Shown in pieces: positions 39,001 to 63,000 of a stretch of 64,000 bases of DNA. How positions within the stretch are numbered: the stretch's first letter is position 1; every line of letters begins with the position of its first letter. This stretch comes from Candidatus Omnitrophota bacterium (lineage in GTDB: Bacteria > Omnitrophota > Gorgyraeia > 1-14-0-20-64-10). The stretch covers positions 68,248-132,247 of the forward strand of contig JAHFFE010000004.1 in NCBI GenBank assembly GCA_023248155.1, written 5' to 3'. A program made the position numbers and the translations under genes. Under the pieces are notes generated by a model. The model searched no databases and had not been told where the DNA came from. It saw only the letters and a list, made by a program, of their open reading frames with translations.

Positions 39001-42000
39001 AGAAGCCCTGAAAGGCGTCAATGCGCAGCTTGAAGAAATCATCAAAGCCAAGTTGACGGTGGAACAGGAGATTCAGGATGTTCTGAAGGGTTCGAATCAA
39101 AAGACTTCGACCACTCCGGCCCAGGCGATTAATTTCTATTTTAATCCAGCAGATCCGCTTGCCTTTGTGGGCCCGGTGCAGCCTTGGGAAGTGGTCTCGC
39201 CCTATTTCTATGAGAGTGCCAATGCCAAGACGTACTATGAAGCCGAACTTGATCCGCGGGTCCAAAAATTAATGCGGTTGATCAAACCGGACACCGGAGT
39301 GGCGCTGGGAACTCCATCGCTTGACGCCGCAGGCGTTATTTTTCAAGCGCTTACGGATTTGCGTCAAAGACAGCAAAATTTACAGAACGAACTTAAAACA
39401 CTTTATAACGGCTGGAATTATCAGGTGCCGGTTTTGGCCAACCGGGACCCCGGCGCGTCGACCGGAGTTGAACTTTACCGGGAATGGAATATGGCCGCGC
39501 CGAATGGCTCTGCCGGATGGTCCACGGCCTGGGATGCGGCGGCGACCTGGACGGAGTGGGAGCACCGCAATCAGGCTGAAGACACGGCGCGCATTGCAGC
39601 GTTAGAGTCGCAATATGTGGGGAGTCATCCGGATGTGATAGCGGCCCGAAACAGCGCCGGTGGGACTGAAGGTTTTGCCGCCATTGCTAAACAAAACGAA
39701 CGCAAATCCATGGTCCGATCCGAAATCGAAGAGACCCTCTTGGCCGGCGTTGAGACCGACCAGCGGCGTCTGGAAGCCGCGCTGGATAAACTTACGGTGG
39801 TGCGCGACACCATGACCGACGAAATGAAAGTGCTGAACCTTGAATTGATTCAGCAGAGAGAAAAACTCAAAGAGAAAACTAATCTGTATAACCCGGCCTA
39901 TGGGGTCGGAACGGCACCGGCCGGCGTTCTGCAAAACAACTGGGAAACCACGGCTAAGAATCTTGGGTTTGATTTTGAAAAAGATCAAAGCGATTACGTG
40001 GCGGCGCGGCTGGCGCTGATGACGGCGTTCTGCGGCGGGGTGAACTGTCCGGATACGCTCAGCGCGTTTACGGGCGCCCCTAAACTTTCGGTTCTTAAAA
40101 GTGTTTTGGACGGCTTGGCCTCGACAAACCGGCCGCTCTGGAACCAGCTCAAGGGTAATTTTGAAGCGTTGAAAAACTATTTTATGAGCGTGATTATGAT
40201 TACGTCGCCGGCTGTCAGCGCAACGGTCAGCAGCGCCGACCTGGCTCTGAATGGGCTCACTTACGATTGGACGGCGATCCTGCCGGCGCGCGGCAAACTG
40301 GAACTTGCCAATTTTGCCGTGCTCTATCTGCGCAGCTATCTGGATACGGCTCCCGACCGTACCACGAATGAATATGCCCAAGCGCAGCTTGAAATCACCA
40401 GCTTGCTTTCCGCGCGCGCTGCCGCTGCAGCAGAAGTGGACCGGCTAACGGATGATTTGGCGGCTTTGCGCTCTCAGATGTCAGAAACGGACTCTCAGAT
40501 TTCGGGAATCAATCTCAAAATCAGCGAATTGGAAGAAACCTACAAACGCATCGGCGGTAAGCCGTCGCCGGTGGGCGGTGTCATACCGGCCGCCGACATG
40601 CATTTCTATAAACGAGCCTTTGTGGAAGCCTTGATCAAGGAAAACAGAGTCCGTATCGACGCAGTCAAGACGGCCTATGTCATGCCCCAGCAGGCGGCTT
40701 TGACTGCGGCCCAGACCGCGCATGCCGCGGATCAGGATACGCGCGATGAGTGGGTTGCTGAATCGGATGTTTTATCCGCCTTCCTGATAGCGGACAGCGA
40801 CAAACAGAAATTACTGCTGGATGCAGGCCAAATGCGCAAATTCAATACGCGCCTGGGACGTGATGCGGCTAAAGGCGAGAGCCATTTAATTAAAACCGAA
40901 CAAGAAGTCCAGAAGCTGATCAGCCAGGCCGGCCTGGCCCGCAACCTTTATGCGGCTGCAGGCGAGGGCCTGCAGCAGGCATTCGCGTTCCGCAATATCG
41001 GCGGCATCAATCCCGAAGCTTTGCGCAAATTCTTCAACCGCTTGTCGACGCCGCAGATGAACATCGAATACTTGTTTGACCGTTCCAAAGCCATGGCCGC
41101 GGCCGCCAATAAACTACTCGAACTTGCGCTCAACAAGCAGGTGGTCAAAGATTCATTGGCGATGCGCATGTTCGCAGATTTGATCCGTTATGCTGCGCGC
41201 GAAACCGCCGGTGCTGGCATTTTCCTCGATCAGATGATCGCTTCCGAAGGCTCGATTAGTCTGTCTTTTGCCTTGCTGGATGCGATTGCCCAGCGCTTTG
41301 ATCCTAATTTTCTGCACATCCTTGATATTCAAGAAAAATATTTCCAGGCCTTGGAAGAAGAAAAACAGCGCCGGCGCCTTGAAAAAGAAGCTGAGGTGCG
41401 TTTGCGCAATCAGCTTAAAGACCTGGCTAAAAAACCGGCCGAAATTAAATTCCAAATGGAAAAATTCGGCCTGCAGTACGACCGCGCCGAAATTAAAGTC
41501 AATGAATATACCGCCCTGCTGACCGCCATTGCGGCTAAACGCGGCCAGCTTGAGACCGATCTGACGGCGGCGCTGGCGCTGGAAGTCACGACGCGTGCGA
41601 TTTTGCAAACGGCTAGCATCGATTACGATACGGCTCTGGGCGACTATCAGACCGCCCGGGCGGTTTACGAAACCACGGCCAATGACATCAACCGCAATGC
41701 CCTGCAGGCCAAGTGGATCAATCTGGTGTCCAAAGGCTCTGCGCTTGAAAATATCCGGCTGACCATGAGCGATTTACAGGCCAAAATTCAGCGTTTGCGG
41801 GATGAACTTTTTATCTATATCCGCGACAGCGGTGAATCTGAATTGCAAGCGAAGCTGACGCAGGCGCTCGATGAAAAGAACCGCGCGCAGGAGCTCTACG
41901 ACAAGTCACTGATCGATTGGACGGCTGCGGATGAGCAGGCGGCGGTTTATGATACGTTCGCAAACCGCGTCTCAGCCGCCGCAGCCGGCGTGGATGACCT

Positions 42001-45000
42001 TCTGCGCGCCAATCCTAAAGCTGAATTGGAGCAGGTGGGCGTGACGCCTGAGACCATCACGGTGGGCGGCGTAACGCAGATTATTTACAAGCCTGTCTAT
42101 GCCAAAACACGGCGTGCTGTTCTGCGCGACGAGCTTTTACAAGCGCAAAAAGAAACGCTGGCGGCAACGCAGGAGCGTACCGGTCTTGAAAAACGCTATA
42201 ACGCCTTGCAGCAAAGTTTCAATGTTGTTGTCCAGCCCATGGGTGCCGTCGCGCATGTCCAGGATTTGGCCCAAAGCTATGTCAATTACACCGAAGGGTT
42301 GGAAGCGCTCAGCCGGCTCAAACAGGAGTCTGAACGGACTATGGCTCTTTCAAAGAGCCTGGCGTCTCTGTCCCAGAGCGCCTCGCCGGCCATCAAGAAT
42401 GAAATGGATAAAATCCAGACCGGTTTCAAAACGCGGCTTGAGGCGATTTCCGGGGAAATAAAGGTTTACTTGAATCCTTACACCAGTGCGTGCACGAGCC
42501 CAAATAACTGCGAACCCGGTCTGCTTCAGGTCGTTCTGGCGCGCATCCTCCGCACCGTGGAAGGAGAGCCCGTACACAGCGCTGCGACTCCCTATGACTT
42601 CACCAGTGTGACCACAGCGGGAGTCATTACGCCCATGATGCAGATTAAAACTGCCAATGAGAACGCCATCAGCCGGGTCAAACTCTCGACACAGTACGAC
42701 CGTTTGGCCAAGGAACCGCTTGAAGATAACAAGAAGATTATTGGAGATTCCACGAAGGTGCTGCAAGCCCTGGCCAAACGGGCGCGTGAGGAATTCCACT
42801 ATGCGGCGACGCAAACCCTGGTGACCAAGACTGAAAATGCGGCTGCCGCGATCACGCTCTACAACATTTCACCAGCCCAGCTTGAGACGGGTTTTGACGT
42901 GCGCCTCGATGCGGAAGCGCTGACCGAAGGCGATTTTGAAAATATGCAGGCCCAGCTTGCCCTGCTTAAATCCGATACGCCGTTTATGCAGGTGACGGCG
43001 ATTCTTGCGGACATCCAGCATATTTTGCCGGCCGCGGTGCGCATGGCCTCTTTGGCGCGCGACCGCCGTGCGGCGGAACTTGATCAATTGACCAATACGG
43101 CGATTCCGGGTGCCGCTGATGAACGCGTCAAGGAATTGCTGCGTGTCAAAGCCAAGTTTGTGACTGAGCGCCTGACCCGCCTGAATGACCTGGTGGATTT
43201 TTACCGCGGCTTTAACTCTCTAAGCCAAACGCTCTATAACGCTTACAACGAAATGGATAAATTGCGGAAACTAACCGGAGCGATTAACGAACTGCGCAAT
43301 CAGTTGACTTCAGCCTCGCTGGCCAATGATGCGGATCTGGCCTTGGCGTCGCGGGTCAGCCAGATGCAGACGGCGGCTCAAACGCCATTCCAGAATTTGA
43401 GCCGTGTTTTGGCGAATTATCAAGGCTGGTTGACAGGTGATATCCAGTTTGATGCGTCTCTTTTCGCCAGCCTGCGTCTTTCCGCCAATGCATTGATGTC
43501 GCGCATGATCGACAATATGAATTTTTCCAACTACCTGCTGCAGCAAACCACGCAGTTCGGCGCACGGCAATTCGGCAGTCTTTCGATGACGGAAACTTAT
43601 CAATTGACCGGCACGCGCGAAACCGGCTGGGCCAATGAACTTTTGAGCCAGACCGGATTTTTTAATACAACCTCCGGCCCGCAGATTTCCAGAATCGTAC
43701 GCTATCACGACGGCAAGGCCCAAGACGCTTCGTTCTATTGGTATCATCCCGAAGCCAAGACCCAGCACCATGTGGATTCTCTGGATGGCACCAGCCTCAA
43801 TATCACTGGCCGCATTTACTATCAAGACCCGGCCGTGCCGCCTGATCCGCGCAAGCCGATTGGTCAAGACGTGCGCATTGACCGCTATCTCAATCCGGTG
43901 ACGCCCGCGCCGTACAATTGGTCTGGAGTGACGCCGGCGGATGCGCGCAATTTCGCGCAGCTGCAATACTCATATTACGACAAAGACCGCCAGGCGCGCA
44001 CACAAGGCCAATCGCTGACCTATGAAGAAGTCAGCACACCTACAGGGATTACGGGGTTGACGCGCCTGACCGATACGCGTTATTCAGGCCAGCAAAATTT
44101 TGAGCGCGTGCAGATGAACCGCCGCTACCGCCTGCTGGATGCTACGCTTGATCTTTCGGCCTCGACGCCCATCGGCATTCCGGGTCTGGATTCGGCCCCG
44201 GCCGCAGCCATGGAAAATGCATTTCTGGAGATTGAACAACGCTATTACTATCAAGCCTTGGCATCGGACAATGATCTGCAGGTGAGCGGCCGCAAAGACC
44301 CGTTTGCCGCATTCCTGAATCCGGCCAATGCCGGCGCGCTCTATCCAGATTATGACGCGGATGAACTGGGCGGGGATTCGCGCGATCTGGACGTTTTGGG
44401 CGAAGTCCAATATTTTGAAGATGGGACCGTACAGAAGTCAATTACCCTTCAGCGCGGCCAAGACCAGATCGAAACGCCCTTTGCGCGTGTCACGCTGCGG
44501 CGCCATAATCCAGCCTGCGGCCTGGCGACGTGCCCTGAAGAAATGCGCGTTGATTCCGTCACGCTCTTTGCCACGGATGAAACCGGGGCCGTACGCGAGC
44601 AGGTGCTGATCCGGCCGCTCGATCCATCGGCTCTGCCGCTTTACGATTCTGTCGTCAATCTCATCACGACTGAAAAAGGCGATTTGAGCGGCATTCTTAC
44701 CAATGGTGCTTTTACATTGGCATCGCGGACCCTGTTTGACGGAGCGCGCCAATCCGAGCGTGTGACGCAGGTCTGGCAGTTTGAGCCGCGCGAGACCCAA
44801 CAGATCCAGAACCTGGCCGATCTGGTTCAAGCCGGCACAAGTCCGTTTAATTCATCGCTGGTCGGGCTGGATATTCTGCGGAATTTCTCTCTGGCCTCGC
44901 TGACCAGCTATTTTTATCACCCGGATAACAGCCTGGATTACACGGTGGGTACGCGTTTTCTGCGTCAGAACACCGGACCGGCTGAGACGATACGCACCGA

Positions 45001-48000
45001 ATATGCCAAGGTCCGCGGCCAGAGCAAGATCGCCCGGACGATTGAAAATGATGGTGTTGAACACCGCTTTACCGAAGCCCTGTATTCCGAAACCGCCAAT
45101 TTCACCTGGGGCCAGGATTTCGTTTTCACGGTGCGCGGTAAAAACAATAAAGATACCGCCTTTAAATGCCATATCAATGCCGCTGGCGGCTGTGACGTTT
45201 CCGATCCTGTGACGGGCGCCATGATCGGCGTGATCAGTGACGGAGGCTTCTTTATCGCCTATACCGAAGACCGGGACGGCGACGGCCTGCTGGATGGCAG
45301 CGAAGATGCCAACGGCAACAACGTGCTGGATCCCGGCGAAGATACGCTGCCGTTCAACGGCGTCCTTGATCCGTCGGAAGATACCAACGGCAATGCGGCC
45401 CTCGATCAAAAGCGCTATCGCGTGCGCATCATTCATAACGGCAATCACGGAACACTGGTGCTGGAGGGGGATGAGGTCATCTCCGTGGCCCAGGCCGGCA
45501 GCCGCCTTGAAAGCCTGCAGGAAGAGCAGAGTTTCTACTTCACCTGGGGCCAGGACTTCGAGTTCAGTTATCTGTGGGAAAACGGAGTGCAGTCGCGTTT
45601 TAAATGCCATATCAACGTGGCCGGCGGCTGCGATGTGACCGATTTGCGCACCGGCGAATTCATGGGTAGTGTTGTCAATCTCGGCACTTTTACCTACGAC
45701 GAAGACCGGCCGGCGCTTTTATTCCCGAACGGTAACGACCTGCTCGACCCAAGTGAAGATATCAACAACAACGGCATCCTGGATCTTGGAGAAGACATCT
45801 TCGCGCCCATTGGCGTGCTGAACCTGGCGGAAGATATCAACCAAAACGGCCGCATCGATGTGCGCAACTATACGCTCGATTTGCGCCAAGACGGCACGCG
45901 TGGCACGCTGATTTTACGCCGCAATGAAATCGTGCCGCGCATTTTTGAATCGGAGAACGTGACCAATCAACTTCTACGCACGCGCAATAATACCAATTTC
46001 ACGGCCACTTCCGAAGGCACGACCAGCTATACCGACTCTGAAGGCCGGCGTCTCAAGGCCGTCGATGCTTTTGGCAATGTAACGCGTTACTTCTACCGCC
46101 GCGACCCGCTCAGCGGTGCGGTCTTGACCGACGTGCGCACGGGCCAGCCGCTCGAAACCTATGTCCTGGACGCCAATAACAATATTACTATTTTAGGTGC
46201 GGAAGGGGAGCGTCTGGCCTTCATCGATTTCTCGGCCCACATGGAAAAAGGCAGCCCGGTGCTCAAGACCGGCATTTACCAGGACATCCGGGTTTGGAAC
46301 GAAACGACCATGACGCTGGATGTGGTCACGATCGATCAGAACATGCAGGGCCGGACCGATCTGCGTTATCTGGCGCGGCCCGATATTCTGACGAACCCAG
46401 CACTATGGTGGTTTAGTGATCCCGACCTGGACAGCACACTCCTCACTGCCGCGGAGCGGGCCGAAACCATCAGCCCAGCCATACACTGGTTCGATTATGA
46501 CCGCGATCCGGCCACGGGCCGCATCCGGCGCGGGGTGAACGGCGAACCCATGAAGATGATCGAACTTTTCTCCGAACGCCAAATGCCGCAGTACAAGACC
46601 GAGTACGGAGCCACGCATCGCGATGTGACTCAGCGTATGTACTATGAAGATGGCCGGTTAGTAGGCAACGACACCAAGATCCGTGACCCACAGGCGGAAT
46701 TGGATACCACTCTGCAGAACACCTATCAAAAATACACGCATGTGCGGATGCGTATTGACGGCGTCTTTGAAATCGTGCGCAACAGCGAGCAGCAGGAGCA
46801 GGAGGACATGCTGGCCTGCGCGTCGTCACCGGCAGGGCCGTGTGATGTCACGTTCCGGCGCAATCATGCAATCCGGCTGGCTTTTGACTCAGACACGGGT
46901 GCCTTATCTGGCCAGGGACTCAACAACAAGGCCAACCAGCAGTCGCTGGATCTAGGCAGTTTTGATTTTGAATCTACGTATCTCGATCCGGACACACTCT
47001 ATGTGAAACGCATGCGCCGCAGTAACATGGCCGCAAGCTTCCAGCCCGAAGTTTCCATGCTCTATAAACGCAATTGGCACGATGATGCGAACCATAATGG
47101 CCGGCAGGATCCCGGCGAAGGCGGCTCTTCAGGCTGGCGCGGGGCCGTTTGGGAACTCAAACAAATTATCAATCCAAAAACGGGACCGGTTATGGTGAAC
47201 ATGCCTAACTCTGCTTATTCGTCCGGCGGCCAGGCGTATAACCGGCTTGTCCAACAAGGACCCACGGCATACAACCTCATAGGGGCTGCGCCGATAACTC
47301 TTGCTCCTCTTGCGGATGGTACGCCGGTTTATGCCCCGCCGACAGGGTGGGATATTGCCCCGTGGGGAGTGAACGCCTTAGAAGCAAACCGCACACTTCC
47401 GTTCTATCAGTATGTGCGAGCGCCGGTTTCTCTCTATGAAAAATACTACACTGAACAGACCAGCCGCATTTCCAGCATGCTGGCAGGAGGCTCCAACCTG
47501 CAAATGCTTTATCGCGGCAGCCTCGATTTGTATGCGGGGCTTGGTGCGGCCGGCGAAGATCAGCCCAATACGAATGCGGCCATCGCTGCTGGGAAGTTCC
47601 AATCTGGATTCGATTGGGACACGACCGGTTCCAATAGGCACGCGGGAACGGAGCGTAACCGCCTGACCGGTGAAATCTTCCAGCGCCTGATCGGCGTCAA
47701 TCCGGCGGCAAAAGACTATCAGCCGACTCTAAACCTGTACTTTACGGGTGAACAGACTATCGGCGCGCTCAATTTTGACATACCGTCTTACGAATATATC
47801 TGGAACCCGGTGACACTGCAGGTGGACCGCCTGCCACTCTCAATCAACGCCAATCTGAAAGTGATCGAAAAAGCCGACGTGGCTAGAGTCGACGGCGGTT
47901 TGTCCGACCGCGCTTTTGATACGCTCGACCAAAAAGACAATGCGCCGCCGCTGGAAGTCACCACCGAAATTATTAACCGCGAAGTCAACCTTCTGACCGA

Positions 48001-51000
48001 AACGCTCACCCGGTCGCTGGATGCAAAAAACCAAGCGATACGTTTTGCCGTCAACGCCCTGCTGAAAGGCGCGGATGGCTTAGGGACAACCACCGGCTTG
48101 CAGTTTTATGAAAACATGGAAGACCGCGGCGGCTACTATCAGGTTTACGAATTTCTCTTCACCGACCAAATGCCGCCGGCCGCGGCTATCGACGAAGTCG
48201 CAGCGGCCTATAAAAAACTGGCATTGTCCAAAGGATTGTCGTCCGCCGGTCTGGCTGGTTTCCTGAAAAACCTTACGAATGCGGGCAGTGTGCGGACGGA
48301 TAATCTGTCCGGCGGCGCGCAAAATGCGCGTCAGCAGGGCTATTCCAAGAGTTTGGCTGACAATATCGTGAACACGATTGTGTATTCAGCGGCTGTCATG
48401 GCGACCAATATTTGGGGTGGTGGGGGCCTGGGCGCCGCTTCGATGGATGGCGCGCTGATCGCGCCGGAGGGCGATCTCATCACGCCGCGTTTCGACTCCT
48501 CTGACCAGACCAACCGGGGCATCGTCAACCCAATGATCGAAGACGGTGAACACCGCTACACGCTGAAACTTCTGAAGGCCTATTCCACCAGCTTGACGGA
48601 ATTCGCCACGCAGTTTGATCCGCCGGTGGAAGCCGACGATTACCGCGCCAATCAGGAAGCCAAAGAAACGGGCCAGACCCCGGATCAGACGATTGACGAA
48701 CTCATCCGCAACGACGTCGGGCTGACGCATACGATTGAGAATTACGTAGCAACCCGCATCCAGTCCGGACAAATTGCTGCCGTCAGTGCGCGCGACTTCC
48801 TTGAAGAGTATCTTTGGGAACTTGCTCCGACGACCGGGACGCAGCCCAAGAATCTGCACGTTGGCCGCGAAAAAGCGCGCGAGATGTTCTTTGAATTGCC
48901 TGAGCTCCTGCGGAAGTTCTACAGCGAGTCGCACGGGGCCAAGGCCGACAGCGAAGCGCTCGGATATCTTGAAAGCCTGGTCAATTACCTTGTGCTGCAA
49001 AACGGAAATCCCGTGGGCAGTGACTTTAGCGGCTTGGAAATGAAAGACAAAATCAAGAAACTGGCCGAAGACCCCACGTACAGCATTGATTACGTTTACG
49101 ATTCCTGGCTCTTTAAGGCGGTTGAGAAAATCATTGCGGCGACGCTGAATTACCAAAACGAGAAACAGGAAGCCTTTAAGGATTTTTATAAGGAAGTGCT
49201 TTATACCAATCAATCGACGACCAGCCTTGGCGATGTCATGGGGCTTCTGACGCACAACATCGTCACGACCGCCGCGATTGGCGGCACGGATACCCGCGTC
49301 GATGTACGGCCGCTTTTGGATGAAGTTAAAATGGAATACCGTGCTTTTATCACGGAGCGCCAGGAAGAAGCGAAGCGCACGGCCACCGAACTTTCGCTGC
49401 AGAGCCAGCAGCGGCATGTCTCGCTGGCCGGCGGCGACCGCGGCGCGCTTGAGGGTGATCTGGATGTCCTGGCTTATGATAAACGCGAAAAAGAACTGAA
49501 AGACTTGCGCGAATTTTTGGGTTGGAAGCCGGTGGCTAGCGGCGGTTACGAATTGCCGCTTCCCACGGCCACGGCACCGGCTGACGACTGGGAAGATTAC
49601 TGGGACCGTAAAAAGTTCACGGAAGGCTGGACCGAAGCTCCCAGCGCATTTCAAGAAGCCGCTCCGGCTGGCGAACTTTACATCCTTCCCACCAAAGCCG
49701 ACAAGGCCCTGCCTGCGAGCCAATATGCCGCAGGCACGCTGGATAACTATGACTTCGGCCTTGAAAAACTTTTCCACAATACGCTTGATTCGATCCAGCT
49801 CTTGTCGGAACAGACCGTAGCCGGCCTCGAGCAGCTCAGCGCCGCCGAACCGCCCATTCCGATGAAGGACCTTGTGGGGATTGAGCCTGGCGCCGAAACG
49901 CCGCTCAATCAGCTTTTCGCCAAATACTTTACACCGGTTTGGGATAAGGGGCGTTTGGAATATAGCGGCAATATGACAGGCGATATGACGATCCGGCTTT
50001 CCAACATGGACAGCCTGACTAAAGACGTCCTGGCCTACGCCGAAAAAATCCTTAAAGACCCGAAGTCGGCGATTAACGATCTCGATTCTGGCCTGCTGGA
50101 TTTTGAAGACATCTTTTCAAAATTGCGCGAGTTGGATAACTCCCTGGCCCTTTTCCACGAAACCGAGTTCAAACGTGTCTATGACAATAGCGTGCTGGTC
50201 TCAAGCGCCAACCCATTCGATCCGGCAGGCCTTGGCGATATCTATGATTTTGCCCATGCGCGCACCGTGCCCGTGGCGCAGGTCGATCATATGCTTGATT
50301 TTGTCAGTCAGCAGATGAACCGCTATTTGGATGTGACGCGCGTCTTTTTGGCCGGTTATAACCAGCTGCGTCAGTCATTTGGCCTGAACCAGGCTGCGGA
50401 AGAGCTGCGCTTTGATCTTGAGACCATGGATCTTGACAAAGGTTTGGACGAAATCCGCAAAGTGGATCCGGGCCGCGCACGCGCGATTGAACAGTTGCGC
50501 AAAACGGCGGTGGAAATGCTCAGTTCCAATCAAGTTGTGTCCAAAGCCATGGCTTACGCCTCCGCCGCGCGGCATGTGATGCTGTCGGCGATGGCGCGCA
50601 ATGATTTTTACAAACTGGCAAAAGAAAAAGACCAGAAGCTCTCCGACCTGGACCCGGCCAGCTATATTACGCGCGATGCCCAGGGAAATCCGGTGTTAGG
50701 GACGCCGCCTTCAGGGCCTGTCTTTCTGCGGCCGGAGTTGAAATTCGATGAAGACGGCGAATACATCCGCGATTTCAAGGAATTTATCCGCACGGAAGTG
50801 GCGCCGCTTGAGGCGGTGGTCAAACAGCATGTCGTGGAAGAAGCCGCGGCAGGCACGCCCACAAATAACGCGGCGGCAGATACCCGGCTTGGTGATGTTA
50901 CCAGCGACTATGCGCAAAAGGCCATTCTGACGAATGTGACTGAATCCAAAAACGTTTTCGAGGAATACGAACACAAGATTTATCTCGAGACCTATGCCAC

Positions 51001-54000
51001 CAAGATCGGCACCGGCGGCATGCTGCTGGCGGATAAATTCACTGAATTGGAGCAAAAAGCCGCGGAATGGCTGAATGCGGCGGCCATGTTGCGCGCCGAG
51101 GAAGGCGCGGCCGGCGAAGAGCGATTCCAACAGGCCGTACGTGCCATTCATGATTACAAGAATGCTTACCGCGATTATCTGGTGCGTTTCCTGCGCGGCG
51201 ATACGTCAGAAATCTGGGGCAGTCCGTTTGCTCTGCCCTCGGGCGAGCCGGTCGAGATCCTTCAGCAAGGCAATTTCGGCATCCTGCACAATTTGAGCAT
51301 GTACTTATCGAAGGACAAGATCTATCAAATTGCCGTCAGCCCGGCTAAAAAGGATGCGAATGGCTATTTGTATTATCTCAAAAAAGATCCCATCACCGGA
51401 TTGGATTTACCCGATGTGATGACCACAACGACGAACAACCGTCAATACGTCCTTGATACAACCGTGCTGGCGTTAACGGATGATCCGGCGACGCTGGGGT
51501 GGGATGAGACGCGCGGCTTTGGCGTCAAGGATGATAAGTTCTTGCCCTTTACCAAAGAACAAATACTCAAGGGCGATGAGTCCGAGATGGTGATCGGCGA
51601 AGAAATGCGCCGCATGATGCAGGAGTATGACAAATGGTTTGACGAGGCCGTCGACGCCTACCGCGGCAGCATGTCGTATTACGAACTTAGTGTGGCGGAT
51701 TTATCCGGCACTGTCACGGCGACGCCGGGTCTTGATCCTTCGGTCATTGCCATGCAAAACACGTTTAGCGATATCCTCAAAATGCATCTTGGAACGAACC
51801 CGCCGACGGCGACATTTGCAGGTATCACGTCGATCAAAAAGGAGTTTAACGACATCCATGATGAAGCGTGGGGTGTTTACGAGCAATTCCTTTTCGGCAG
51901 CGCGGCTGAAACCGACGGAGACGGCGCTCTGGAAAAATACAGAACTGAAGTGCAGGACGTGTATGAGGCCGTCAAGGGGCTGGATAAGAAAATTTCAAGT
52001 ATCCGCCAGCTTGCCAAGGCTGAACCGGTGGCGCGCGAACTGGGCCGCAATATTTTTGAAACAGCCTTCAGTGTGATTCAGGATTTGGCTTCTGAAATGC
52101 AGCGTGAGATTTATAACTACAACCGTTCGGCGATTCTCAAGATTGGCGCGCAAGATAGCTTGAATGAGTTTTACGTTAAAAAAGTTCGCGCCATGACCGG
52201 CATGCTCAACCAACTCACTAATAATCAGTTTTCAAAATACTTTGGCCTGCCCCGGGATTGGAATAAGGCCATTTATGGCGGCTATTTTGGCCACGACTTT
52301 TTAGGGGCCCGGGATAACTGGCTGCGGGATGTGTTTGCCGTGCCGCTAGGGATTACGTACACAGGCACCCAGGCCGATCAGGACGAAATTTTTACCGAAA
52401 TCGGCATGCTTGTGCTTGATTCGCTGACCAATCATGTCTTTGAGCAGGGGACGACCGAGCAGGAAATGACGCTCTTTGCCATGATGTCGTCGGTTTTTGG
52501 CGAAAGCATGGGGCCGATCAAATATTTTGATACGGAACTCGAGTTTGACAAGAAGATGAATTATCTGCGCCAGGGCGGCGACCCGGCGTCCGGTAAGCGC
52601 CTGACACCGCTGGAAGTTTTAAGTGAATGGTTTGAAGAAGGCTTCCTGACCGACTCTGAGTTTCTGCAGTTTACGGATGCGAAGTCAGCTTCCAAGACCC
52701 AGCCCCTGGAAAAAATCATCGCCACGCTCAAAAGCCAGACCGTTTTCGGTGAACCGCGTTTCAATCATGTGATTGCGCCCAACGGTGCTGTGACGCCTGT
52801 CAATGGAACCTATGCGAAAAAGATGGAAGAAATCCGGCGCAAATATATTCTCGCCGGAAAAGTCCCGGCTAATGCGTGGCGTAACGCCGTGATGGGCGAT
52901 CTGCATTATGCGCTCGGGACGCCTTCGGCGCCGGCGCCCACGGAAATCCGCAAAGACGGTACGCTGATCAATAAATACCATTACACGGGTTTTAGCAGCG
53001 GAGAATATGGTTTGCTGGCCCTGGGCAGCCAGCTTTGTGAAGACGCTGTGAATCTGGCTTGCAACGATTCAGCTCCGATTACCGGAGATTTAAACAATAT
53101 ATTCCAGGGGTTGGGACTTATTTTTAGCACGTTTGATGAGGCGTCGGGAAAATGGAATGCGCCCGCTTTCTTTGCGATGAATGCGAATACCGATTTTCTA
53201 GACTTAGTCGGGGGTTCAACGGGACTCTCGAATGGGGTCAAACATGGTTTGTTCGATATTAACCATGCTCTTATGGATGGCGATTATCAATATTCTGCGA
53301 CCGCCGATGTATCGGACAATAAAGTTCTCTCAAAGTTCCTCTATGGCGGTGGCGGCGGAGGCCTTGCAAAAACCAATAACGCGAAAGAAGACGCCCTGGC
53401 ACAATTAATCACGAAAGCCCGCGCCAACATTCTGACGGATTACACGGCCGGCGGCGGCAATGTCGATCTTTTGCGCGAAGACGCGACGCACATTTCCAAC
53501 ACGATCCACGATCTCTATGAAAAAACGCTCAACCGCATTCAAGACTTCTACGACTATGGCCCTACACCGGGCCAGCCGGGTGCCGGCAAACTGCTCGACG
53601 AGTTCTACCTGAGCGGCCGCCAGAACTTCGCCGACTTCTCTTACAACATGATTCTGCACTTCAGCGATTTTGATCCGGCCAAATTCACGACCTCGAATTA
53701 CGACTACCTGGCCGTGGAAGCTGACCATGCCCTGGCGGAAACCGGCCTGCTCTCCAAAAACAAAGACGGCGGCGCGGCCTCCAACGCCCTCGCCTATGCC
53801 AGCCGCGCGCATTTTGAAGAAACCCTGCTTTCCGAGATTAACGCGCTCGATGAGCGGATCAGGGAATTCCTGGTCATTGGCCAGGATAGTTCGATTATCA
53901 AGGGTGGCCTGCACTCCTTTGAAGTCGCGGCCGGCATCAACGAAGCGCGCAAAGCCCGCCTGCGCGAACTCGAACGCCAAGGCATTATCAACCGCGGCGA

Positions 54001-57000
54001 AATTGCAACGGTCCAGGGTCTTACGGCTCTCACCGATCAGGAAGCCGAATTGCGCAGTTTGCTCTACAACGCGCATGTGGCCATTGAAGTCACCGATGCC
54101 AGCGGCAAATTGCATTACAAAGAATATGACAACGGGCTGAATACGCTGGAGCAGATTTATACGGATAACGACAAGAAAAAACTTGAGAAAGAAACGATTC
54201 GTACTTTGCGGGAAAACGGTATGGTTGCTGAGGCCACTCGCAACTTTATCCGCGAAAAACAGCGCAATCTCAAAGGTGAATACGTGGATACCGAAACCAT
54301 CGAAACCACGCTCACCGACATCAACACGATCGGCGAGGCCGTCAACGTTGAGCGTATCGTGACTGTGATTAAAGACGTGGGCGGGAGTCTCTTGGCCCGG
54401 ACCAATGAAGCCGTTTTGGTCAAAATGAAGGCTCGGGGCGCCGTCAAGACGGTGTCCAAGACCGGCAGTAAAATCAAAACAACGCTCAAAATTGATGGTG
54501 TCAAAACGACACTAGGATTCATCTATGATGAAGTCACGGAGACATACACGGATCTGGAGGGTAAGCCGCTCACCGGCAAGGGCCTCGGTGACAAATGGTT
54601 AATTGATGGGCTCCTGGACGGCACCCTCAGCATAACCATCCTCGACGAGGCGGATGGTTTGGAAGGTGAAATTTCCGGTCCCTTGACAAAATCGGTGCTT
54701 GTGGCGGCTAGAGACCAGGGCCTCGAAATCAGCCGGGACATCATTGAGCCGACGCTGTATGACCGCCTCCAGCATCCCGGCATGTCCGATCGAGACCTCA
54801 TAGCCATCCTGAACCCGATACCCGAGAATTTAGAGGTGGTCATGCAGAATGGCCATGTTGTCGACGCGAGTTATGACACCACCGTAGACAAATATGGCTG
54901 GAACCTCGGCAGTATTTTCCGGGGTGTCGTTGACTTTATTGTGGACAACCACGGAACCCGGACGGAGAAGTTAAAAGTTCACTTGGATTTTGCCGCGTTG
55001 GATAAGGCCCAATACGAAAAGAGAGAGCCCAGCATGATTCGCGACCTGCTCGGCGACGATCTCGGCACTGTCCTCTGGAATTCCATCGGCGGCCGGCAGT
55101 TTGTCGCGGCGTTCAGCGATATCAAGACGGCTTTGGTCAATATGGCCACCTCCATTGTCTACGAAACAAGTCAAGTCGGCCAGTGGTTCAGCAGTACGAT
55201 GGGAACGGCGGGCACGATCCTGGCCTGGACGCTTGGACTTGGGCTTCTTGCGCTGGCGGCTTTTTTCCTTGTGCCTCTAGCCGGAGCCTTTATCGCAGCC
55301 GGCGGCATTCTCTGGGGTATTTTCGCGGCGGGTGCAGTGCTCTTTGCCGGAACGGCGTTCGTTGCCGCCGTGGCGGGTTTATGGATGGGCGCCAGTCTAG
55401 GCGAAAGCAATTGGCGCAGCGTCGAAGAATACCGCAGTCACCTGCGCCAGAATGAAAAGAGTCAGTACCTCATCAATTTCGCCATGACGCTGATGCTCTC
55501 AGCAGGTATCGGCAGCAGTTCCTTTGCTGTTGATTTGTGGACAGGCGCGAAATTCTGGGCTCTTTCAGAATTTGGCAAAGCGTTTCTCATTGAGGCGGCC
55601 ATATCCGTGTTTGCCGGAGCAGCCGCGCAGCTCTTTTTCTTCATGTGGAATACGCCGGCCGCTCAGCGAACTTTGGGTGATCTGTTGTGGGAAGCGGCCA
55701 AGGGCGGCATGAATGGCTTCCTTTTCTTCATTGTGATGAGTGCCCTCTTTGGCCCCACCGCCATAACGCCCTGGCAAAACCTTCAGCAAATGGGTGAGCG
55801 TGTGACCTGGACGATTGTGAAGGCTGCCTGGAGTAAGGCGGAAGGTAATCTATTTGCCAGAACACTCGATTTCCTCATTATCCAGGGGGGTGCCGGACTG
55901 CTTATCCGTTTTGCCGCGCAATGGATTCCTTCTGCTCTTGGTGGCTGGGCATTTCGCGGGGTATTCAAAGTGGCCCAGTCGCAACTGTCGCGGGCGGCTG
56001 GAGCTTTTATTCTAAAGGCAGCTTCCATTGCCTTCATACGCTTGCCCACGATCCTGGTCAATTATCTGATTTCAGCGGTTGGTCAAGGCATCGGTTGGGC
56101 TGCGTTTGGCGTGGTTTTGACGGCGATCGGAGACGCCTGGAAAGCTGGCAGTGTCTGGACATTTTTTACATCACTCGGATCGGGTTTTCTCGCCGTCGGA
56201 TCGGCGCTTTATCAATTCCTGGGGACGCTGTTGTGGTCTCCGTTCGCATTATTTGAGGGCGGCTTCAGTGGCTTGGGAGCTCTCTTTCAGGGTTTCGTGG
56301 ATGCGCATGGCGCTATTGGGCAATCCATGCTGAATGGCTTTCTAATCGGCAATTTGTTCACTATTTTTGGGCCGTCGGTGACCGGCGGATTCGGTCGGTT
56401 TCTGGCGGGTCTGCATAACCCGTTCCAGGGCCTTGCGCGTTTAGGCGGCCAGCGCGTGGAAGCCTGGTTCATGGCGCTTATCTCAAAGATCGGACTGGGC
56501 GGATTGATGCGGCTTGGAACCGCCTTTGGGAAGTCTGCGGTCGGGAAATTGCTGTCGAACGCGGTTAGTAAAACGATTGGGAAAATTATTCCTGATGCTG
56601 TGAAGTCGGCAGCCAAACGGGTTGGTGAAATTTTAGGCAAACTGTTCTCAACTCAGGGTGTTTTCGGGCTCCTTCAACTCCCGTTCATTTCGCACTTCAG
56701 CGGGCTTTTGCTGAATCCGATCACCTTTTTGGGCAGTGCATTTTTTGTCGAGCATATTGTACCGTTTCTCGGCCAAACCATTGGGGAGCCGCTTGTACTG
56801 CAAGTGGCTTTACTTTTTGGTGTAACGGGCCTGCTGCAACGAGACGCGAAGGGCAATATTCTTCCGCAACTGAATGCCTTTGCCAAAGAACACGTGACGC
56901 AAAATCTATTCTTCTTCCTCCTGCCGCGCGATGTGCATGGCCGCGAAGCTTTCCAGAAACGCGCCCGTCTGGACTACCTGCATCAGCATGGCTCCTTGCC

Positions 57001-60000
57001 CAAGGGCAAGATCACTCAGAATAGGGCAATCGGACTAGCGCTGCGCGAGGGTAAAAACCCCGCTGAGTACTGGGCTGAAGTCAAGGGCCGCAATGCCGCC
57101 GAAGTGCTCATCGAAAGTTTCGTCCAAACGCAGATCTCCAGCGGCAACTACAATAAGTTCGAAGCGTTGACGTCGATAGCCGATCCCGGGACCTCCGAGT
57201 GGGATGTACTCATGGCCCTGGAGAAATTTAGCTTTTCGGATAATTTAGACTTTTATACTAAAAGTGAAGGCGCCGTCACTGTCGATGCTCGCACGGCCGC
57301 CCGCATTCATCTTGCAGCGAAGGTTGGAGGAAACTCTGAAAAATTTGCCGCTGCCATGACGGAGAGAATTCAAGCCGAAAATGAAGCTAAGAATCTTTAC
57401 GCGAGTGGCCGCCTGCCCGTATTGAGAGAAAAAGTAGCGGATAGGGACAGAACGATGAGTGTCAAATCCGCTGATCTTGTGGCGCGTGATTTTGGCGCGG
57501 ATTTTTTTGCGGTGGAACGGACCGACACTCTCAAATCCGGCTGGGTTTCTGGGCTCAAACCTGAAGCCATCAAAGAAGGGGCGAAATTTGAGGACATCTT
57601 CCAGGAGGGAGTAAGAGGCACAGCGCTTGAAGGCTCTAGGGTCAGAGTTTCCGATTGGAAAACGATTTCAGAGACAAAAGCGACCGATGCGATGGCCGCG
57701 GTCAACAAAGCTCTGGACGGTAAGTTTGAGGCTGAAGCGACTGAGTTTATTTTGGCGGTGTTCCAGAGTCATCTTAATTCGTCGATGGCGGCCGGGTTTA
57801 AGGCGGAACTTGCGAAGTATGGCGATAACGATGCTGCCCATGATGCAGTCTATAAACAGCTGGATGCTGATTTTGCCAAAAATAAAGCCAATGTCCGGGC
57901 GCGAGAAATGGTACTTCATGCTGAAAATGTTGCGGCAGAGCGCTACCAAAAATATCTGGATACGCTCGATTCCGCTGCCCGCAAAGCCGAATTGATAAAA
58001 ATCCCCGAGGAAGTCGATGCGGCAGGCGACACACCGGCCGGGATCGCCCAGCGGGCCCGCTGGCTTGTGGGAAGCCGCGAGCTCACCAAAATAAGTGCGC
58101 ATGAAGCCGCGGAGGCCGTAAAAGCCGCCTATGAAAAGGCCACTCCCTTCGAGACGATTGTGGGCGATAAGTTTGAAAATACTCGCGAGGTGTCACATCA
58201 GACCGAGAGTACGCTCAAAGTCAAAACGCTGCCCAAAGAACTGACGGAAAACTCAGCGGGTCACATCGCGGATGCTTTCAAGAATAATCCAGGGGTGCGC
58301 GAAGTAATCCTTGTAACCTTCAGCGAAACCAAACCCAGCAAAATGCTGCCTAAAAATGCTACCGCCGTTCAACATACCCAGCATGCAAAATATGTTGAGA
58401 AAATTGCGATTGTTGCGCTCAAGGATTCCATGCGCCCGGGTGGCACCAAATTCTCCAAAACGGAAGCTCTGGCACTTGAGAAGTTATTGAACTCAGGCTG
58501 CGGAAGCAGCTGTGCTCAAAGGGGTGCGTTCGGCAAAGATCTAAAGAAAGCTTTAACCGAAGCCGGTTTTATTCTGGGTAAGGCCTTGGCTGCGGACAAT
58601 CATAACCTGCTTAGGATCGGCGGCATGGTCGTTCTGCCGGATGACTTGAACGACCTGGATGCGCTTTCAGGCCGGCTGATCGCCGAGGCGCGGAATGACT
58701 TTTCCACGTTCGGAACCGGTGTTCGCGGTATGGAAACCCTGCGCACGGCGGTCAGAGTCTACGACTCGCTTGCGCCGACGGGCCAAAGTAACAGGGCAAA
58801 AGTTTTCTCATTTGCGCAAGCCTACTACCGCGCGGGCGCTCTCTCGGCCGGCACTGAGCAAAATAAACAGCGGCGAACGGCCCTAGACGCTCTGACAAAG
58901 CTTCTGGTGAATGTCCAGGAAAGCAAAGGCAGGACGGTCTCGGCGGCTGAGGCTAGGTCACTGCGTGTCGATGCCTTGGTGATCTTAAGAGCATTTTCCG
59001 GCGAGACGCGTGCGGCGCAGCGCTTAGCGCTTCAAGAGATCGGTGCCTTGGGCAAGGACGGTCTGGTCAAGGGCGGTAATATTTTTAATTGGGCGGAGAG
59101 TAAGATTTCTGAAGCGGATTTTAATAAATTGAGTACAGGTGCAAAAGCGAAGGCGATCGCGGACGGCAAAGTACAGCTCCAGAAAAAAACGGGAATCCAA
59201 TTTGAAAGCTTGACCAGTCTGATCAAAAGCGAATCCGGGGTCCTTCAGCTCGGAACTGCCGGCGGTAAAACCAGCGTGCTGACACCCGGTCTTACCAAGA
59301 TTATGAATCGCCTTGGCGTGCACACCGTCCAGTTTTTCCCCTCCGAGTTCCTTAAGCAGGCCGGTTTTGCGGCTGCCAGCTCGCAAGCGAGCAATACGAA
59401 AAAAATTGATCTGTTGGAGGGCGACATTTCACGATTAAACGGGCGGCTTACTAAAACAGAAGGGGCCGCGCGTCTCAAGCTCCAGGGGGAAATCGAAAAT
59501 CTGGAAGGTCTCAAGTCACTGCTGGAAGCAGGGATGAGTATTGTGGTTTTTGACTCGAAGAAATTTTATAAAGCGGGCGAAACGGCCTATCGGGAGCAAG
59601 TGCTCAAAGCGGATGTTTTGGTCGCTGATTTCAATGATACGAAAAGCGGTCTGTTGGAAGTCCGGTCGACCCGCGATTCGGCGCGCATGAACAACGTCGA
59701 AGCCGTCGGCCGTTATGATGCCGGCTTGCGGCTGCAAGATCGCATTGCGCGTTCGCAGCTTTTAATCGACGAAGTTGACCAATTGGTGGACGTTCCCTCA
59801 ACAACAACGGCGGCCTTTGGCGTTGAAGGCGGCGTGACCAAACGGGCGATTGACGTCGACAAAACCAGCGTGCGTGACGTAGACACGGTCGTCAAGGTCT
59901 TGGTCGACAAAGGCTATGCCAAATTTGAAAATAATAAACTCAAACTGACTAAGACGGGTGAGAGTAGTATTTTTGGAGCAGACGGCCGGGATATTAACGG

Positions 60001-63000
60001 CATTAATTTCAAAACGACCGCTGTGGATGATGTTTTGGGAACACTGGGCTTTGAGAGAAGTTCGAATCGCGGCCAGCAGTTTGCGAAAACGCTGGAAGGC
60101 GTTGCGCAAGGTTTGAAATTTAGCGCGCGTCAGGTGGCCTTCGGTCAAAAAGGTACAAATAAGTTTCATCCGGTCGCTGAAAACGGTGAAACCTCGGTCG
60201 ATCAGGTTTTTGCGGGCGCGCGCCGCGCTGCGGCTTACGATATCGTGGGCCGTTTGCGTGAGGGCATCAGCCATGACGGCATAGGCTCAGCCGTCTACCG
60301 CAATGTCGGCGATGTCGCGAAACTGGTGAATCTGCGCGAGAGTAAAGTTGAAGTCCAGGAAAGCGCGGTCACCGTCAGTGTGGCGGATGCTTTCCGCGAA
60401 CTGCGCAAGCTTGCCGGCGGCAATCTGATGATCCGCGGCTTTTCGGGCAATGCCACGGTGGCGCGCGAGCGTTTGGCACTGAATCTTGGGGTTGATTTTA
60501 TCGGCAAATTCGATGGGATTGAGAATGGCCGGTTCTATACGCTCAAGCAAACGCCGGGTCAAACCGGCTTCCGGCTGCGCAGCAACGCGTTAAACCATAA
60601 TTTCCATGGGACGATTGATGGCGCGCTGAACCGGATTACAGCGACCACCATCAGCCGGAATAAAAATATTTTGATTCAGGATATCACCGGCGAGGGCTAT
60701 AACGCGGTTTGGGATGCAACCGCCCGCAGATTGAGTGATCTGGGCCGCACGGCGACCGATAAAACGCTGTTTGTCGTCATGCTGCCGGAAAAAGGAAGCG
60801 TGGCCGTATTTACCGACTTTGCTGCGTTTAAAGCCAAGGATTTCAGCAAGTCCACGGAAGTGAAGTCAGTCAAGAATAAAATAACCGGCGAGCTTGATCT
60901 TGTAGTGGACATTAAGGGCCAGGAAATACAGTTCAATCGATTGCTGGGCGGCTATGAGGCCGGCAAAGGCCCTTTAGAAGCGCTAGGCTTTGACCGTGTG
61001 GTTGAGATTCAGAGCATGCCCGCGACGCGCGGTACCGACCAGCGCTTTGACGTGCAGAATTCAGCCGGCAAGTGGCAAGCCAATGTCCACCGCATCTTAC
61101 TGGTGGATCGCAATACGACTTTTGACTCGCTTGAGCAGGCCTTGGGCCGTGACCGCGGGTTAGGCAATTTGACGCTCGACCGCGCGACGCTCTCAGACAC
61201 GATTTCCGTGATTGATGCCAACCCCAATGCGCTGCGGGCCGAGTTCAGCAAACTGGGCGGGGGCGACAACGTCATCGGCTTGGTACGGTTCACCCATGAA
61301 ACGCTGCGCGCAAATATCCGCGAAGGCATTCTTAGCGATGGCTTGACCGCCTTGCGCGATGCACCCGGCCGTTTGTTGGGTGAAATTGAGACGGCGTTGA
61401 ATCAAACCTCCCAGGGCGGCGGCTTGGGCGGTGTAAAGGGCGCGGCGAAGGGCGATGTGACGGCGGCTCTGGCCTCTTTTGCGGCTTTGCGGAAGCAGGT
61501 GGAGGCAAAAGGCGATGACCTTACGACAGCCTTCAAGGGGACAGTCAAATCGGACCTAAAGTTCAACGACACCGCCAAGCAGTTTCACCAGTTGACGGTG
61601 GATCTGCTGCGTGGGACGGGAGATTTTAAGGGCACGGGGGTCGACTTGATCAAGGCCCTGGAAAATGCGGGCGCTAAAGAGCTGGCCGGCCGGTTGACGC
61701 GCGATGTTTTGAATGTGGACGCTAAATCGCTTGAGCTTAAGTTTGACGAGGTGACGGGCGCGGTCGAAGGGGCCGGACGCGGCGCCCGTTTCCTGGCCGA
61801 TGCCGATGTGTTTACGGTACGCGATACGGTTCAGGCCTTCCGTAATTCTCTGCATGATCTTTCCACGCGTCAAATTGAAGTCGGCGATAACGTTAAAGGC
61901 CGCACGACGGCTGAAACTTCGGGATTTAAAAGCGCGCGCGATCTTTTGCCGGATTTCACTTCGGCCAATCGCGCGGTGACTGCGGCGGTGCGTGTCGAAG
62001 TGAAGGCAACCGAAGGGTTGGCCCGCACCGAGGTAGGCAAAAAGTTGATTGATGCCTCCAGCGCCAAATATAGCGAGGCTTACCAAAAGACCATTGTAAC
62101 GGAGGTCACGGCAGCCCAAAAAGCGCCGGGCGCTACCGCCGCCACGATTGCTGCAGCCCGTCAAGCGGCCGAGACCAAAGCGGATGAGGCGGGGCGCGCC
62201 GCGTCAGCCACGCGGTTTTATGTGCCGAATGCCCATGAAATTCATGTGGAGGTGGGCGGCCAGGTGCTCGTGTTTAATGTGGCTGATCCTGGTGCCGTTG
62301 CCGCTGCCAATCAACTCGATTATGAAACCGCCGCCATGATTCGCAATGCCGTGCCGGCGGGTTCGGTGAATGGATTTGTAAGCGCGCAGTTTGATGTGGC
62401 GGCTAACCAGTTTGTCTTTTCGGCGGATATTTTGACGGATTTTCAATTTCAGCGTTCCGGCACAAAACTGCCGGCGGCAGATTTCTTCCGCCAGATCGTG
62501 ACCCCGCAGACCCAGCCGGGGACCAGCGGCTTCGCGAACTTTAATCGCGTTGATTTTGGCGCGACTGCGGATACTCGCAGGACCAGCCTGGAGAAGCATT
62601 TGGCGGCTCTAGCGGCTGGGAAAATCCCGTCGGCTCCCGGCATCGATGGGACAACTTTGCCTCACCAAACGCTGGTCTTGCCCGATACGGACACCGTGAT
62701 TGACGTGCCGAATGTGGGCGCTATTGCGATTAAGGGCGGGACTAAGATTTTTGTTCATGCGGATGGCACGGTGAGCATTCCGGCCGGCGCATTTGCCGAC
62801 GATGATTTTAGAATCCCGGGATTCAAGTTAATTCCGACGGCGGATGCGGCGATTGTGGTGCGCGCAACCGGGGCAACGGTTCTACGGTTAGGGCCTGGAA
62901 CGCAGTCGTCTTTTGATTTTGGCGGGGTTGCCATTCCGAATCTGCCGGAGGGGACTGAAATTGAATTTATTAAAAATACCGTGAGTGCCATTAATTTACC

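Follow-up and report, generated by a model that had tools for sequence, protein, structure and literature searches.

A hydrophobic cluster within a giant open reading frame

The DNA analysed here (the window) is a stretch of 64,000 nucleotides from contig JAHFFE010000004.1 of a Candidatus Omnitrophota bacterium (assembly GCA_023248155.1). It is occupied by part of a single giant open reading frame (ORF), in which we examined a cluster of hydrophobic segments and the putative P-loop region that follows it. Positions 2..64000 of the plus strand form one stop-free frame of 21,333 codons (plus frame 2) that is open at both window ends, whereas the remaining five frames contain 263–1,141 stops each. 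The encoded protein is at least 21,333 amino acids (aa) long, and its full length and both termini lie beyond the 64-kb window. Residues are numbered as aa = (nt−2)/3+1. A first-pass annotation, made from the letters alone, had placed a polytopic membrane domain of ten or more transmembrane (TM) helices at positions 55195-56930, corresponding to aa 18,398-18,977. The lack of stops in plus frame 2 identifies this region as coding, and the roughly 18,400 residues said to precede the hydrophobic segments within the window are indeed there.

The hydrophobic cluster, a putative polytopic membrane domain, spans 55184..56836 (plus strand; aa 18,395-18,945), so the dense hydrophobic region of the earlier annotation is recovered at nearly identical coordinates. 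It is delimited by hydropathy, composition and 15 helix calls. The grand average of hydropathy (GRAVY) of the cluster is +0.78 compared to −0.23 for the whole protein, and its aspartate plus glutamate content is 3.9% compared to 13.5% overall, with charged residues down to about 7–10%. Glycine, alanine, leucine, phenylalanine and tryptophan are enriched (Gly 13.7%, Phe 9.7%, Trp 3.3%). No charge-free run of the protein is longer than the one that opens the cluster, 79 residues built of G/A/L/F/I/V/W at 55166..55402 (plus strand; aa 18,389-18,467). This run, found by charge scan, reads as two unambiguous TM helices or three shorter ones (free energy, dG, of −2.7 on the Hessa scale), and mean Kyte-Doolittle hydropathy over its predicted helices is 1.5–2.0. 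Charge-free runs of 25 aa or more number 17 in the protein, and six of them sit in the cluster. Across the whole window, every 19-mer with a Hessa dG of 2 or below falls in the cluster, as do seven of the ten with a dG of 4 or below. Furthermore, six cluster segments outscore the best segment anywhere in the other 20,800 aa in a TopPred-like scan, and no paralog of the region was found inside the window. The hydrophobic cluster is real, and it is unique in the window.

We used our own implementation of a three-state Viterbi model (inside loop, outside loop and helix of 17–30 residues) to estimate the number of helices. The helix penalty was calibrated on 18 Escherichia coli proteins, namely SecY, LacY, seven membrane and six soluble Nuo subunits, LacZ, LacA and SecA, for which reference TM numbers are available from solved structures. 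The lowest summed error (6) was obtained at a penalty of −4, which returns 10/10 helices for SecY, 12/12 for LacY and 16/16 for NuoL, as well as 14 for NuoM and NuoN and 8 for NuoH. At this setting, 15 helices are called in the cluster on the plus strand, compared to nine calls in the other 20,800 aa. The first eight lie at aa 18395-424, 18426-449, 18451-467, 18490-510, 18527-549, 18572-588, 18624-651 and 18665-686, and the last seven at aa 18689-710, 18715-736, 18739-766, 18779-804, 18821-843, 18887-916 and 18919-945. At 0.43 calls per 1,000 aa, the background outside the cluster does not exceed that of soluble controls, and LacZ, NuoG, NuoCD and SecA gave 0–2 calls each. One of the nine outside calls is the Walker-A strand of the downstream P-loop region, and the remaining eight fall within or next to an Ala/Ser-rich stretch that surrounds a C39-like domain.

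The helix count in the cluster depends on the penalty: it is 15, 10, 8, 8 and 2 at penalties of −4 to −8, and 2 at −9. Two helices (aa 18,406-18,434 and 18,436-18,464) survive every penalty tried. The plausible range is 8–15, so the earlier figure of ten or more stands as a calibrated estimate that is not secure; it agrees with the 15 helices called at −4 but gives way to 8 and then 2 at stricter settings. A span number of 11–15 is most likely, with at least 2, and the cluster very probably forms a polytopic, alpha-helical membrane domain within the giant protein. The first-pass annotation was also right that this is not a simple N-terminal anchor and that a P-loop-type region comes after it.

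It could be argued that the segments are not embedded in a membrane, and that they are instead buried core helices of a soluble, hydrophobic, glycine-rich domain or simply low-complexity sequence. Most segments do have a positive Hessa dG, and the count falls to two helices at a strict penalty. In addition, the TopPred-like scan, which uses the Goldman-Engelman-Steitz (GES) scale, over-calls Ala/Ser/Thr-rich soluble stretches elsewhere in the protein (40 'certain' segments protein-wide) and was used in relative terms only. However, a 79-residue charge-free run together with a GRAVY of +0.78 over 550 aa is far outside the behaviour of soluble proteins, the soluble controls gave 0–2 calls each at the setting that yields 15 here, and the six top segments exceed every other in 20,800 aa. 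We regard a soluble cluster as extremely improbable.

The first-pass annotation also described the segments as rich in small-xxx-small packing motifs. The pattern [GAS]xxx[GAS] occurs 61 times in the cluster compared to 62.5 ± 5.2 in shuffled sequences, and GxxxG occurs 10 times compared to 10.2, so there is no excess over what composition predicts. A possible internal duplication was seen between 55706-56056 and 56327-56635 (plus strand; aa 18,569-18,685 and 18,776-18,878), both as a DNA repeat (D1) and by self-alignment, although the signal is weak. The two copies, MNGFLFFIVMSALFGPT... and LNGFLIGNLFTIFGPS..., are about 207 residues apart and share the pattern NGFL..FGP[ST]..P[WF]Q.L..G.RV..AW... 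Their alignment score is 52 (z 3.2), with 0 of 300 shuffles as high, for segments that were picked post hoc. The best self-comparison pairs recur at offsets of 180–210 aa, with a maximum z of 4.2 among 210 pairs. This weak repeat suggests that the bundle may have grown by duplication of a unit of about 200 residues.

Searches for relatives and the putative P-loop region

A word-indexed search of 5.8 billion proteins returned nothing at E ≤ 10 for the TM region, for the putative motor downstream of it, or for both together. No relatives were found by scanning GTDB genomes with the motor and with the C39 region, JGI metagenomes with the TM region and with the linker plus motor, IMG/VR, or plasmids and phages by tblastn. 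The TM region (aa 18,380-18,990) matched zero Pfam families at E ≤ 10 and a single NCBIfam entry far below threshold (E 0.26, 10 bits compared to a cut-off of 828), while searches of PHROGs, PADLOC and PDB sequences with the TM region gave none. AlphaFold2, run without an alignment, produced a nearly all-helical model of low confidence, with a predicted local distance difference test (pLDDT) score of 44 and a predicted TM-score (pTM) of 0.22. The proposal of a transporter or SecY-like identity is thus not upheld, as there is no Pfam or NCBIfam membrane family at E ≤ 10 and a model with a pLDDT of 44 is unusable for comparison. The first-pass annotation had spoken of a membrane transport or anchoring unit. 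Anchoring is a reasonable reading, but a transport role finds no support in the family searches.

A protein that is released or held at the cell surface could instead use the cluster to enter the membrane of a prey or host cell and deliver its C-terminal part, much as large clostridial or MARTX toxins do with their translocation regions. A predatory or parasitic lifestyle is ascribed to Omnitrophota that carry giant proteins, and it has been proposed that giant ORFs form pores in host envelopes. Many cluster segments beyond the first hairpin are also marginal, glycine-rich and somewhat amphipathic (hydrophobic moment, muH, up to 0.99), which counts in favour of target-membrane insertion. On the other hand, the uncharged 79-residue stretch, with its hydropathy of 1.5–2.0, would be hard to keep soluble, and no similarity to any toxin translocation family was found. 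Insertion into a target membrane is very unlikely.

The cluster is followed by a basic, helical, Ala/Glu/Lys-rich linker at 56837..59206 (plus strand; aa 18,946-19,735), for which only a sub-threshold helical-repeat match was obtained. Lysine plus arginine (K+R) make up 14.1%, with a net charge of +9 (block 19,001-20,000). The putative P-loop motor was then delimited by motifs at 59207..61201 (plus strand; aa 19,736-20,400). On the same strand it contains a Walker-A-like LGTAGGKTS (59,249-59,275; LGTAGGKT from aa 19,751), a Walker-B-like QLLIDEVD (59,756-59,779; LLIDEVD from aa 19,922), ATRGTDQ (61,019-61,042; aa 20,342, with RGTD at aa 20,343) and LEQALGRDRG (within 61,094-61,165; GRDRG at aa 20,381). 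The Walker-A-like motif lies 774 residues past the region originally annotated, in agreement with the spacing of about 770 residues given for it, and 805 aa past the last helix. The Walker A, DEVD and motif V/VI-like elements occur in the order seen in SecA, with the caveat that these motif definitions are post hoc and strict patterns fail.

We compared the putative motor directly to E. coli SecA. BLASTP gave short high-scoring segment pairs, each with E ≥ 0.25, that line up with SecA motifs I, II and V in their order. The Smith-Waterman score was not significant (z 1.4 against shuffles), and phmmer --max with SecA as query did not single out the putative motor within the giant protein. At E ≤ 10, neither Pfam nor NCBIfam gave a match for the region, SecA_DEAD (PF07517) and SecA_PP_bind (PF01043) included, and PDB sequence searches, which included short motif-bearing pieces, returned no SecA match. 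A single-sequence AlphaFold2 model of the motor had a pLDDT of 35, and Foldseek against the PDB gave no hit at E ≤ 0.001 (best E 0.15). The SecA-like motor named in the first-pass annotation is supported by the resemblance of its motifs only, and profile searches, PDB searches and the statistics against E. coli SecA are all unsupportive. Taken at the level of motifs, the data support a P-loop region with DEAD/SecA-style motifs; the name SecA-like motor is plausible, mainly through analogy to the literature.

The only match of the motor region in the family libraries (Pfam, NCBIfam, PHROGs and PADLOC) was a weak one to winged-helix domains. It covers an insert at 59870..59971 (plus strand; aa 19,957-19,990; ...VLVDKGYAKFENNKLKLTKTGE...) that matches PADLOC WH_III-A (E 0.045) and the N-terminal domain of PDB entry 5xnc (E 0.075). 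A winged-helix-like segment directly after the Walker-B-like motif is unexpected for a SecA-type motor. We had considered the RDVDTVVK... sequence as a motif of the SecA preprotein-binding domain (PPXD), but dropped this assignment in favour of the two independent weak winged-helix matches.

It should also be noted that a 699-codon stop-free stretch lies opposite the linker on the minus strand (56896-58992). This stretch, longer than any other antisense open stretch of the window, probably mirrors the codon bias of the sense frame rather than being a gene. Separate expression of the TM-motor part from an internal promoter or terminator finds no clear signal in the window, as counts do not clearly exceed those in shuffles (7 internal promoters compared to 5.1, and 17 terminators compared to 10.4 ± 3.1). 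Downstream of the motor, beta-rich or leucine-rich-repeat-like repeats were read from the translation at 62699..64000 (plus strand; aa 20,900-21,333), with no family match in Pfam or NCBIfam. Because these repeats run off the window end, the protein extends well past the unit of bundle and motor, and the cluster may lie some way from the C-terminus.

Another reading is a self-contained export unit, in which the bundle would be a protein-conducting channel or insertase that works with the SecA-like motor in cis, on segments of its own chain or of other copies, without need of SecYEG. With up to 15 helices over 550 aa, the bundle greatly exceeds the size that an anchor would need. It is followed by P-loop motifs spelled like those of SecA, and it has been suggested in the literature that SecA-like domains may assist the export of the giant protein itself. 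However, the cluster has no similarity to SecY, YidC, ABC or MFS proteins or to any other Pfam or NCBIfam membrane family at E ≤ 10, AlphaFold yielded no usable fold, direct self-comparisons of the cluster are weak, and the SecA identity of the motor is only putative. Furthermore, the motor is translated after the 18,400 residues that it would have to export, so any action in cis would be post-translational. We consider such an export unit unlikely. The stronger proposal, that translocon and motor are fused in a self-encoded device of a new family that threads or anchors tens of thousands of residues independently of SecYEG, is distinctly unlikely.

Upstream domains and the sidedness of the cluster

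Several domains were identified upstream of the cluster, all on the plus strand. An ILEI domain lies at 1799..2038 (aa 600-679; PF15711, E 2.2e-07, above the gathering score), and the best of several Dockerin type I repeats at 8384..8572 (aa 2,795-2,857; PF00404, E 2e-53, 178.8 bits). These are followed by an EF-hand pair at 12,821-12,994 (aa 4,274-4,331; PF13499, EF-hand_7, E 2.7e-09) and a C39-like domain at 24323..24571 (aa 8,108-8,190; PF03412, E 9.3e-10). TSP3, F5_F8_type_C (discoidin), DUF1080 and GNAT domains, which like ILEI and C39-like domains have been described in Dockerin-type giant proteins, were not found in the window at E ≤ 1e-3. Dockerin, EF-hand and ILEI modules are typically extracytoplasmic. 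Because the match to the C39 profile is partial (positions 45-129 of 133) and the protein is free of cysteine from aa 3,220 to 11,453, a span that contains the domain, the domain cannot be an active cysteine peptidase; with no cysteine available, it resembles the inactive C39-like domains of HlyB-type exporters.

The C39-like domain is directly preceded by an Ala/Ser/Thr/Gln-rich region of low charge (21680-23551; aa ~7,227-7,850), in which the charged fraction falls to 0.075 and GRAVY rises to 0.64 over 200 aa. Eight weak TM calls were made at aa 6,951-8,260, the best at AAILAALVLGLLAA (~aa 7,251-7,264), and none is robust. The cysteines of the protein also show a pattern. Cysteine makes up 0.1% of residues, and all 26 cysteines at 9635-58513 (aa 3,212-19,504) occur in 13 close pairs, 4–13 residues apart (for example 3212/3219, 12658/12663, 17679/17687 and 19500/19504). 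Twelve pairs are upstream of the TM cluster and one, a CxxxC (19,500/19,504), is in the linker. A chance origin of this pairing is very unlikely, and the pairs may form short disulfide loops or metal sites. We had also considered the pairs as a marker of topology, but a split of 12 upstream and 1 downstream is expected from the lengths alone and says nothing about sidedness.

The distribution of charge changes at the cluster. All 18 of the upstream 1,000-aa blocks are net acidic (−15 to −77), compared to net charges of +9, 0 and −4 for the three downstream blocks, and the switch is sharp, with a boundary near nt 55,200. When the positive-inside rule is applied to an 11-segment TopPred-like model, K+R number 7 on the N-terminal side and 28 on the other; the corresponding counts are 17 and 12 with 15 segments, and 10 and 12 with 8 segments. 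We also forced the start and end states of the Viterbi model, which gives the right orientation for LacY and SecY. Scores of the four orientation classes lie 0.4–5 nats apart, and an N-terminus outside with a C-terminus inside is best at most settings, by 0.4–1.8 nats. This orientation is favoured because of the K+R counts of 7 and 28, the switch from an acidic upstream part, and the extracellular-type domains found there. The parity of the span number is unsettled because the helix count falls at stricter settings: models with 15 or 11 helices are odd, and those with 10, 8 or 6 are even.

These results bear on the statement in the first-pass annotation that the arrangement fixes the topology, with a large part of the protein necessarily on the opposite side of the membrane from the ATPase. 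With parity shifting with the threshold and orientation classes only 0.4–5 nats apart, the arrangement does not fix it. Nevertheless, we think it more likely than not that the two flanks lie on opposite sides, and further spans may occur downstream of the window. The order that was described, of outside modules, TM bundle and then ATPase, is consistent with the domain types, the charge switch, the K+R counts of the 11-segment model and the best parse, with the ATPase identified by motifs only.

If the number of spans is even, the cluster would be a membrane tether with both the huge N-terminal part and the C-terminal motor in the cytoplasm. The 10-, 8- and 6-helix models are all of this kind, and the small differences between orientation classes leave room for it. 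The C39-like domains of HlyB-type exporters, the type of domain found upstream here, are themselves cytoplasmic. Furthermore, a 2026 preprint that used DeepTMHMM counts 46% of long proteins as TM-only, with most of the chain predicted in the cytoplasm, and the present protein would then belong to this 'TM-only, bulk cytoplasmic' class. Set against this, the Dockerin, EF-hand and ILEI modules point outside, the sharp switch in net charge at the cluster suggests two compartments, the calibrated best parse is odd with N-out/C-in, and the twelve close cysteine pairs upstream would fit disulfide loops. We therefore regard an even-span tether as rather unlikely.

The reading that we favour, and judge moderately probable, is that the cluster is a polytopic anchor and stop-transfer module, which would hold an exported, adhesin-type ectodomain in the cytoplasmic membrane of the producing cell and keep the P-loop region tethered on the cytoplasmic side. 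The long acidic N-terminal part would be exported during translation until the first, very hydrophobic hairpin of 65–80 residues halts transfer, and the remaining, weaker helices would then pack around this hairpin. The basic linker and the P-loop region would stay in the cytoplasm and be kept at the membrane by the bundle. Such tethering may stand in for the scaffold and wing domains that SecA-like modules of this type lack, as West-Roberts et al. proposed.

Several observations weigh against this anchor model. No homologs of the cluster were detected: an exhaustive phmmer search with 800 aa gave 0 hits at E ≤ 0.001 among 1.84 billion representatives. Its helices are lost at stricter penalties faster than those of control membrane proteins (SecY keeps 10 down to −7), and only two of them are robust, the remainder being marginal with a Hessa dG of +3 to +6. 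All of the TM predictors are our own re-implementations and are distinct from TMHMM and DeepTMHMM. The choice of parity and orientation hangs on about 1 nat or less, and with 10, 8 or 6 helices the two flanks end up on the same side. The part after the cluster, at least 2,388 residues with the beta-rich repeats among them, is long for a cytoplasmic tail. The ATPase nature of the putative P-loop region is deduced from its motifs. Finally, the N-terminus lies outside the window, so the signal peptide region is not covered.

Comparison with known giant proteins and export systems

How bacterial proteins of 20,000–150,000 residues are made, exported and anchored is an open question, and the TM cluster with its adjacent SecA-like region is the only part of such giants that hints at an answer. 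The present protein is a clean case, in which a single block holds all credible membrane helices, preceded by extracellular-type modules and followed by a basic P-loop region. If the cluster were more than an anchor, it would define a new family of membrane proteins, given that no relatives or family matches were found.

Among classical systems, the type I secretion ABC exporters of the HlyB type share with this protein a C39-like domain that lacks the catalytic cysteine, an analogy also drawn by West-Roberts et al. Here, however, about 10,000 residues separate the C39-like domain from the TM cluster downstream of it, and searches for ABC membrane and ATPase domains found none. SecA-SecYEG likewise pairs a membrane helix bundle with a P-loop region, and the motifs here resemble those of SecA (LGTAGGKT and MRTGEGKT, LIDEVDQLV and LVDEVDSIL, ATRGTDQ and AGRGTDI, respectively). 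As in SecA, an insertion directly follows motif II, but in SecA this is the preprotein-binding domain and here it looks winged-helix-like instead. In contrast to SecA-SecYEG, bundle and motor are parts of one chain, 805 aa apart, and similarity to SecA or SecY lacks statistical support.

The closer comparison is with other giant proteins of this phylum. According to the 2026 preprint, 98.6% of Omnitrophota proteins with a length of 30,000 aa or more have TM helices. The archaeovorin type, exemplified by a 39,678-aa protein of Velamenicoccus archaeovorus with 42 predicted TM helices, is likewise giant and rich in TM helices, and has a SecA-like module without scaffold and wing domains for which the adjacent TM regions have been proposed as an anchor. 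Archaeovorins differ in that their TM helices are scattered and accompanied by many enzyme domains, whereas here the helices form one 550-aa block preceded by adhesion and calcium-binding domains.

West-Roberts et al. (2023; bioRxiv 10.1101/2023.11.21.568195) described Dockerin-type giant proteins of Omnitrophota in which TM anchors are followed by SecA-related domains. They noted that the SecA-like modules of giant proteins lack scaffold and wing domains, and proposed that the adjacent TM regions anchor the SecA-like domain. Like the Dockerin type, the present protein is encoded by an ORF that exceeds 20,000 aa and includes Dockerin_1, EF-hand, ILEI and C39-like domains; robust TM helices are absent from its long N-terminal part, and its TM cluster comes late and precedes a P-loop region of DEAD/SecA type, recognised here by motifs only. 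It differs in having no Pfam SecA_DEAD or SecA_PP_bind match and no TSP3 or discoidin domain at E ≤ 1e-3. The likeness is one of domain set; no sequence relative was found, and the distance from cluster to C-terminus extends beyond the window. The layout has thus already been published for giant Omnitrophota proteins, and the present protein confirms it rather than revealing a new architecture.

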